Shown piece after piece: positions 1-1,065 of a stretch of DNA of 1,065 bases. The notes under the pieces were generated by a model. That model saw only the letters and a list, made by a program, of their open reading frames with translations. It was not told where the DNA came from and searched no databases. A program made the translations under genes and the position numbers. The DNA lies in the sequence record OR846432.1; one strand, given 5' to 3'. How positions within the stretch are numbered: the first letter of the stretch is position 1; every line of letters starts with the position of its first letter. This stretch comes from a phage.

Positions 1-1065
1 GGGGTACACAACTGTTCAGTGTGAGTCGTTGATTGAAGATATGATCGCGGGCGGGAATTTCAGCTGGCAGGCGTGCCATGAGATGTTTGCGCGTAAAGGG
101 CTTATGTTGCAGAAACAGCATCATGGTCTTGTGATTGTGGATGCGTTTAATCATGAGCTCACACCAGTGAAGGCCAGCAGTATCCACCCGGATTTGACGT
201 TATCCAGGGCTGAGCCGCAGGCAGGGCCATTTGAGATTGCAGGTGCAGATATATTTGAACGGGTGAAGCCTGAATGTCGCTACAATCCGGAACTTGCTGC
301 CAGCGATGAAGTGGAGCCCGGCTTCCGGCGCGATCCTGTACTGCGTCGTGAACGCCGTGAAGCCCGTGCAGCTGCGCGGGAAGATTTGCGCGCGCGTTAT
401 CTTGCATGGAAGGAGCACTGGCGTAAACCCGACTTACGTTACGGAGAACGGTTACGGGAAATTCATGCTGCCTGCCGTCGGCGCAAGGCGTATATCCGTG
501 TGCAGTTCCGGGATCCACAATTGCGTAAGCTGCATTACCATATTGCGGAAGTGCAGCGTATGCAGGCGCTGATCAGGCTGAAGGAGAGTGTGAAGGAAGA
601 GCGGTTGTCACTGATTGAGGAGGGTAAGTGGTATCCTTTGTCCTACCGGCAGTGGGTGGAGCAACAGGCGGTACAGGGAGACAGAGCTGCATTATCACAG
701 TTACGTGGCTGGGATTATCGTGATCGTCGCAAAGACAAGCGACGAACAACGAATGCCGACCGCTGCGTGATTCTCTGTGAACCGGGAGGAACTCCACTTT
801 ATGAAGACACTGGCGTTCTCGAAGCCCGTCTGCAGAAAGATGGCAGTGTGCGTTTTCGTGATCGGAGGAATGGCGAGTTAGTCTGTGTGGATTATGGGGA
901 CCGTGTGGTGTTCTACCATCATCAGGACAGAAATGAACTGGTGGATAAGCTGAATCTGATTGCTCCTGTATTGTTTGATCGTGAGCCAGGAATGGGTTTT
1001 GAACCGGAAGGCTCATATCAACAGTTTAATGATGTATTTGCGGAAATGGTGGCCTGGCATAATGC
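1..1065 (+). CDS. Internal fragment of a large conjugative relaxase-like protein (MOBP family, TraI/NikB-type), truncated by the window at both ends. Codon phase: first complete codon at 2-4, last at 1061-1063.
   Basis: Hand translation of + frame 2 gives 354 sense codons and no stop (GYTTVQCESLIEDMIAGGNFSWQACHEMFARKGLMLQKQHHGLVIVDAFNHELTPVKASSIHPDLTLSRAEPQAGPFEIAGAD...VFAEMVAWHN). An open frame this long is very unlikely by chance at roughly 50% GC. Leu is mostly CTG and Arg mostly CGT/CGC, as in enterobacterial coding DNA. The segment HEMFARKGLMLQKQHHGLVIVD...KASSIHPDL...GPF resembles, from memory, the region after the nickase core of IncP TraI-type relaxases (GL.L...G-hydrophobic-I-D/E...KAS..SRDL...GPF). 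No database search was possible. The coding call is strong; the product call is moderate. Confidence 0.75.

Follow-up and report, generated by a model that had tools for sequence, protein, structure and literature searches.

An open frame from the middle of nikB', very probably a 5'-truncated relaxase remnant of IncI/IncK type on the F-type plasmid pO157

The 1,065-nt stretch of DNA analysed here (the window) very probably comes from the interior of nikB', the remnant of an IncI/IncK-type MOBP conjugative relaxase gene that has lost its 5' end and most probably has no function. It is carried by pO157, the F-type virulence plasmid of E. coli O157:H7. The window is 100% identical to positions 52440-53504 (+ strand) of pO157 from E. 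coli O157:H7 Sakai (AB011549.2). It recurs unchanged in other O157-type plasmids, which number in the hundreds; of the 812 places matched among E. coli complete genomes, 811 were on plasmids and one was on a chromosome. The original Sakai record places the window inside a CDS, nikB (51715-53688, 657 aa), and RefSeq/PGAP flags this locus as pseudogenic, with the entry "relaxase NikB; incomplete; missing N-terminus". On the extended pO157 locus (L001, in which the window occupies 6001-7065), the open frame runs from 5225 to 7249, a length of 674 codons with a TAG stop at 7247-7249, and exceeds the window by 776 nt on the upstream side and by 184 nt on the downstream side. The part inside the window (2..1063, + strand, 354 codons) corresponds to residues 489-842 of both the 903-aa IncK2/Z relaxase and R64 NikB (899 aa).

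The 5' end of the gene was located by alignment with intact relatives, which encode proteins of 899-903 aa. The pO157 sequence keeps only residues 231-903, with the alignment beginning at A231, 690 nt into the intact gene, and the breakpoint falls at L001 5228 (AB011549.2 51667), so that 230 codons are missing compared with the intact close homologues. The open frame begins three bases ahead of the recombination junction with F-type DNA. When the locus was searched as a 2.2-kb query, the matches to thousands of F-type plasmids were confined to its opening 128-133 bases, which belong to the hok/sok tail, and the plasmids with an intact relaxase matched from base 129 (L001 5228) on. F-type homology ends at L001 about 5227-5234, and pairwise BLAST sets this end at 5230-5234; by the same comparison the adjoining IncK2/Z-like segment, L001 5228-7898, is 99.1% identical to pSH262-2. 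The two parents share few bases at the join (CC.GGC) and no IS end is present there, which suggests that this left junction (L001 5227-5234) was made by illegitimate recombination. A 120-bp probe centred on the junction was found whole in 338 plasmid records (PLSDB), which is consistent with a single ancestral event that has been inherited vertically.

The surroundings of nikB' on pO157 are psiB-psiA-hok/sok on the upstream side, followed after the gene by IS remnants and toxB; an oriT-nikA-nikB operon with its cognate T4SS and coupling protein is not found there. According to the plasmid annotation, nikA, oriT(IncI), and the IncI T4SS are absent from pO157, and no IncI coupling protein adjoins nikB'. 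We propose that one ancestral rearrangement joined a 2.67-kb IncK2/Z-like fragment, comprising nikB from codon 231 to the stop, a small TolA-C-like gene, and about 150 bp more, directly to the F-type leading region, at the point where its hok/sok module ends. Such a rearrangement would have taken away oriT, nikA, the operon promoter, and the entire nuclease domain, and the leftover 674-codon frame would still look like a gene (no stops, periodicity, native codon usage) through the recency of the truncation. The first-pass annotation had supposed a gene longer than 354 codons with both termini outside the window. The frame does continue past both edges, to 674 codons and an annotated CDS of 657 aa, but no complete gene with a start lies outside, the native 5' end (230 codons) being absent from the replicon together with nikA and oriT. 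The absence of a plausible start, which that annotation had named as evidence against its proposal, was found in part: the first ATG of the open frame, at L001 5276, is the annotated start, and it is the internal M247 of the intact relaxase.

Two features on the downstream side were also recorded. At L001 7317-7748, downstream of nikB', lies an intact gene whose 143-aa product is annotated as a TolA C-terminal domain-containing protein. This gene came with nikB' from the IncK2/Z backbone (L003 7090-7521), and no such gene is present between nikB and trbC in R64; the protein might mimic TolA and have a bearing on how colicins or filamentous phages enter the cell. Beyond it, and outside the window, the heptamer ACCTCAC is repeated perfectly in tandem, with 10.1 copies, at L001 7909-7979 (AB011549.2 ~54348-54418). 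This array starts ~10-20 nt past the right-hand end of the IncK2/Z-derived fragment and is absent at the corresponding place in pSH262-2.

Homology to NikB/TraI (MOBP) runs along the protein, as judged from the NCBIfam model NF041893 (TraI_MobP_relax) and from 70-75% identity to R64 NikB. The window matched NF041893 with E = 1e-45 and 156.7 bits over profile positions 192-494 of 502, and the 657-aa ORF matched with E = 3.7e-62 and 210.9 bits over positions 175-494 of 502 only; neither score reaches the equivalog cutoff of 250 bits, and the N-terminal third of the profile is unmatched. Three parts of NikB fall within the window: the final TraI_middle-type repeat, a charged segment rich in Arg and Glu, and the start of the C-terminal region. 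The C-terminal portion of a TraI-like middle domain (PF22863) was detected at 62..235 (+ strand; window aa 21-78) with E = 2.1e-7, above the gathering cutoff, and this copy comes last among the internal repeats of that module in NikB. Pfam placed TraI_middle at aa 231-320 of the 657-aa ORF and detected two such stretches in the intact relaxase; window aa 22-94 (65-283) aligned to R64 NikB residues 260-340 and 377-448 at 26% and 39% identity, respectively (R64 gene, L009 17391-20090). The Arg/Glu-rich, mostly charged segment (RRERREARAAAREDLRARY...RDRRKDKRR) spans 300..730 (+ strand) and is nearly invariant in the three sequences compared (IncK/I-gamma/pO157); a weak 9-nt repeat at 347-372 arises because the codons for RRE/ARA are repetitive.

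The nicking activity of MOBP relaxases resides in the N-terminal nuclease domain, and this is the portion that pO157 lacks. In the intact 903-aa IncK2/Z protein, PF03432 (Relaxase, the MobA/VirD2 nuclease domain) covers aa 84-203, and the Pfam scan of the pO157 ORF returned TraI_middle alone, with no PF03432. By alignment, the catalytic-Tyr region (DLIAYTS, Y22) and the His triad HTDTDNLHVH (158-167) both lie inside the 230 residues deleted in pO157. A sequence search of the PDB with the intact 903-aa relaxase as query gave no solved relative at E ≤ 0.01. We infer that the nikB' product cannot act as a relaxase, because its nuclease domain is absent and the plasmid is without oriT(IncI), nikA, and an IncI T4SS. 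An essential part of the gene has been lost at a definable breakpoint, as is expected of a pseudogene; the point on the other side is that 674 codons are unbroken and that the original Sakai record has a 657-aa NikB starting from an in-frame ATG.

Over the 2,019 retained coding nucleotides the pO157 and IncK2/Z genes differ at 10 positions, of which five are synonymous and five nonsynonymous; when these were polarised with the IncI-gamma/K1 outgroup, two fell on the pO157 branch and five on the IncK2/Z branch, with three ambiguous. The pairwise dN/dS between pO157 and IncK2/Z is 0.29, a value that comes from only 5 + 5 changes, located mostly on the IncK2/Z branch, and that cannot separate neutrality from constraint; with 10 differences only, dN/dS on the pO157 branch is uninformative. 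Among the intact lineages dN/dS is ~0.19. So few mutations would be expected to leave the frame intact with or without selection, and we attribute its present state to a recent truncation (at most ~5 substitutions on the pO157 side) and not to demonstrated selection. The coding statistics of nikB' are inherited from the ancestral gene. The frame is also interruptible in a natural isolate: in one strain, E. coli O157:H7 Z1825, the plasmid pZ1825-1 (L007) carries a 1.3-kb IS1203 at window positions 868..872 (L001 6868-6872), and the five bases 868-872 are duplicated on both sides of it.

Signals for expression were sought around the start of the frame. A simple consensus scan from the hok region past the ATG to L001 7832 revealed no sigma-70-like site, no well-spaced Shine-Dalgarno sequence was seen by eye before the ATG at M247, and a consensus terminator scan found none. 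Inspection by eye and folding pointed to a GC-rich hairpin followed by UUUUC after hok, at L001 ~5098-5130 (-29.5 kcal/mol), which is statistically weak (z = -1.97) and is only indicative of a structure that closes the hok transcript. Read-through from hok or a weak internal promoter may reach nikB'. On balance, we infer that nikB' is without expression and without function.

These observations bear on the most durable of the alternatives, namely that the truncated ORF is an expressed, functional gene whose 657-aa product, starting at M247, keeps the middle repeats and the C-terminal region. For example, it could serve as a decoy aimed at the IncI-type coupling protein or relaxosome and so interfere with incoming IncI/K/B/O plasmids, or it could have some other moonlighting function. 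The unbroken frame of 674 codons with its in-frame ATG and its annotation as a CDS in the original record would fit this proposal, as would the presence of the allele in 338 plasmid records and the finding, by alignment, that the retained region is the most conserved part among the IncK/I-gamma relaxases. The retention of the allele is, however, explained by the vertical, near-clonal inheritance of pO157 and by the small number of substitutions (at most ~5) since the event, and the ATG has the hairpin and U-tract upstream of it and neither a promoter-like site nor a well-spaced Shine-Dalgarno sequence. The IS1203 disruption in one isolate, the assignment as a pseudogene by both PGAP and a published survey, and the fact that the partner IncI T4SS and coupling protein do not adjoin the gene in pO157 also argue against expression with a function, which we regard as very unlikely.

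Slightly less likely again is the specific form of this proposal, in which NikB' (M247-M903) would be translated at a low level from hok read-through and would act in O157:H7 as a dominant-negative decoy against incoming IncI/K/B/O plasmids. It presumes that NikB' keeps the determinants recognised by the IncI/K coupling protein and that the decoy cuts establishment or transfer of the incoming plasmid. Were it true, nikB' would be a domesticated relaxase fragment serving plasmid-plasmid competition.

The proposal that the window derives from an intact, full-length nikB of a conjugative IncK2/Z-type plasmid instead of pO157, and hence from a functional relaxase gene, has less still to recommend it and is highly improbable. 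The full-length gene of the pSH262-2 type of IncK2/Z plasmid is 99.1-99.5% identical over the region, but the window differs from pSH262-2 at codons 491, 560, 593, and 694 and equals pO157 at all four, and the 100%-identical records among the matches listed (best 20 per search) are all O157-type IncF plasmids of 91-108 kb.

That frame 2 is the coding frame of the window was examined by several measures. Translation of frame +2 (2..1063) gave 354 sense codons and no stop; the numbers of stops over the 1,065 nt were 29, 0, and 14 for frames +1, +2, and +3 and 16, 6, and 9 for frames -1, -2, and -3, respectively. Given the base composition (GC 52.6%, p(stop) 0.049), a stop-free run of 354 codons has a probability of ~2e-8, and a fully open frame appeared in 0 of 20,000 mononucleotide shuffles of the window. 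The period-3 Fourier power was 8.55 compared to a shuffle mean of 0.75 ± 0.43 (z = 18.3), a level reached by 0 of 2,000 shuffles, and the GC fractions at positions 1, 2, and 3 of the frame 2 codons were 0.656, 0.411, and 0.508, respectively. A codon-usage log-odds model trained on 4,244 codons from genes neighbouring on the plasmid ranked +2 first at +44 bits and -3 second at +10 bits, with +1 at -166 bits. The first-pass annotation had described a stop-free frame 2 of 354 codons and taken it to be the true coding frame, and had proposed a test of its 3-nt periodicity and codon usage against the five other frames; the translation, stop counts, and shuffles confirm the former claim, and both parts of the test favour frame 2. 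Its remark that the ORF track is blind to genes running off the edges is likewise correct, since the tool declares that it omits ORFs extending past an end of the sequence, and for this reason frame 2 is missing from the track.

The track does list four ORFs of 60 aa or more, namely 159..518 (-), 200..418 (-), 294..572 (+), and 573..1016 (-), together spanning 159..1016, and all are read as shadows of frame 2, as had been suggested from the start. A Pfam search of the four gave nothing significant. The largest, 573..1016 on the - strand (147 aa), contains four stops in the 90%-identical homologue of pRM9467-C1 (L004), in which frame 2 is open, and substitutions relative to that homologue fall on positions 1, 2, and 3 of the frame 2 codons in numbers of 34, 24, and 88, respectively. 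The other three ORFs (159..518-, 200..418-, and 294..572+) lie in a nearly invariant stretch, where conservation is uninformative because the sequence hardly varies, and codon log-odds and periodicity favour frame 2 there. An Rfam scan of both strands of the window at E ≤ 1 returned no match. The idea that the open frame is a chance non-coding feature and that the real gene is a listed ORF on the opposite strand draws its sole support from the existence of the 147-aa antisense ORF and is almost certainly wrong, being rejected on the statistics (P ~2e-8, 0 of 20,000 shuffles, period-3 z = 18, best codon log-odds in +2) and on the comparison with homologues (excess of substitutions at third positions, antisense ORF broken in the homologue, strong family and homologue matches).

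These results carry a caution for scanning sequences of this kind: a long stop-free frame with perfect coding statistics may be a recently decapitated pseudogene, and ORF tracks that need both termini hide such frames. They also make nikB' a footprint of the mosaic past of pO157, in which a fragment of IncK2/Z type would have been spliced into an F-type leading region.

The nearest known systems are intact MOBP relaxases. In R64 and the IncK2/Z plasmids, NikB and NikA bind oriT, NikB nicks by means of a catalytic tyrosine and a His triad, and the intact NikB then guides the single strand on its passage through the IncI type IV secretion system. Both NikA and NikB are needed for IncI1 transfer (PMC4288162, PMC6112013). 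Against R64 NikB (IncI1, 899 aa; NC_005014), the translated window shows 75% identity over residues 489-842 and the complete pO157 ORF shows 70% over residues 248-899, and in both proteins the TraI_middle repeats, the charged segment, and the C-terminal region follow one another in this order. R64 has the gene order nikA-nikB-trbCBA, whereas pO157 is without residues 1-230 (the nuclease domain, catalytic Tyr, and His triad), nikA, oriT, and trbABC. The IncK2/Z relaxase of pSH262-2 (WP_000991387.1, 903 aa) is far closer, with the 10 differences in 2,019 nt over the retained coding part and 99.1% identity over the whole 2.67-kb common fragment including the downstream TolA-C-like gene. In pSH262-2, however, the gene is intact (2,712 nt), is preceded by mobA/nikA and followed by the TolA-C-like gene and trbCBA, and belongs to a conjugative MOBP/MPF_I plasmid, whereas the pO157 copy starts at codon 231 and is fused to F-type DNA. 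From this sequence comparison, the IncK2/Z lineage is the likely donor of the fragment.

A further relative is pRM9467-C1 from E. coli O145 (IncFIB + IncI-gamma/K1), an EHEC virulence-type plasmid with espP. It carries a full-length nikA-nikB module whose identity to the remnant in pO157 is 90%, and typing classes the plasmid as mobilizable. EHEC plasmids related to pO157 thus keep the intact gene that pO157 has lost.

The nikB' relic itself is already known. A survey of plasmid pseudogenes ([quoted passage not shown]) lists nikB, with traI, as a non-functionalized pseudogene in 164 (98%) of the PTU-E5 (pO157-type) plasmids and describes the cluster E5 plasmids as non-mobilizable and domesticated (bioRxiv 10.1101/2023.11.08.566193). 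The window is that same nikB relic, with no material difference; what is added here is the exact coordinates of the junction and the likely IncK2/Z donor. Our reading fits the published picture of pO157 as a domesticated plasmid that has lost mobility and is passed on vertically.
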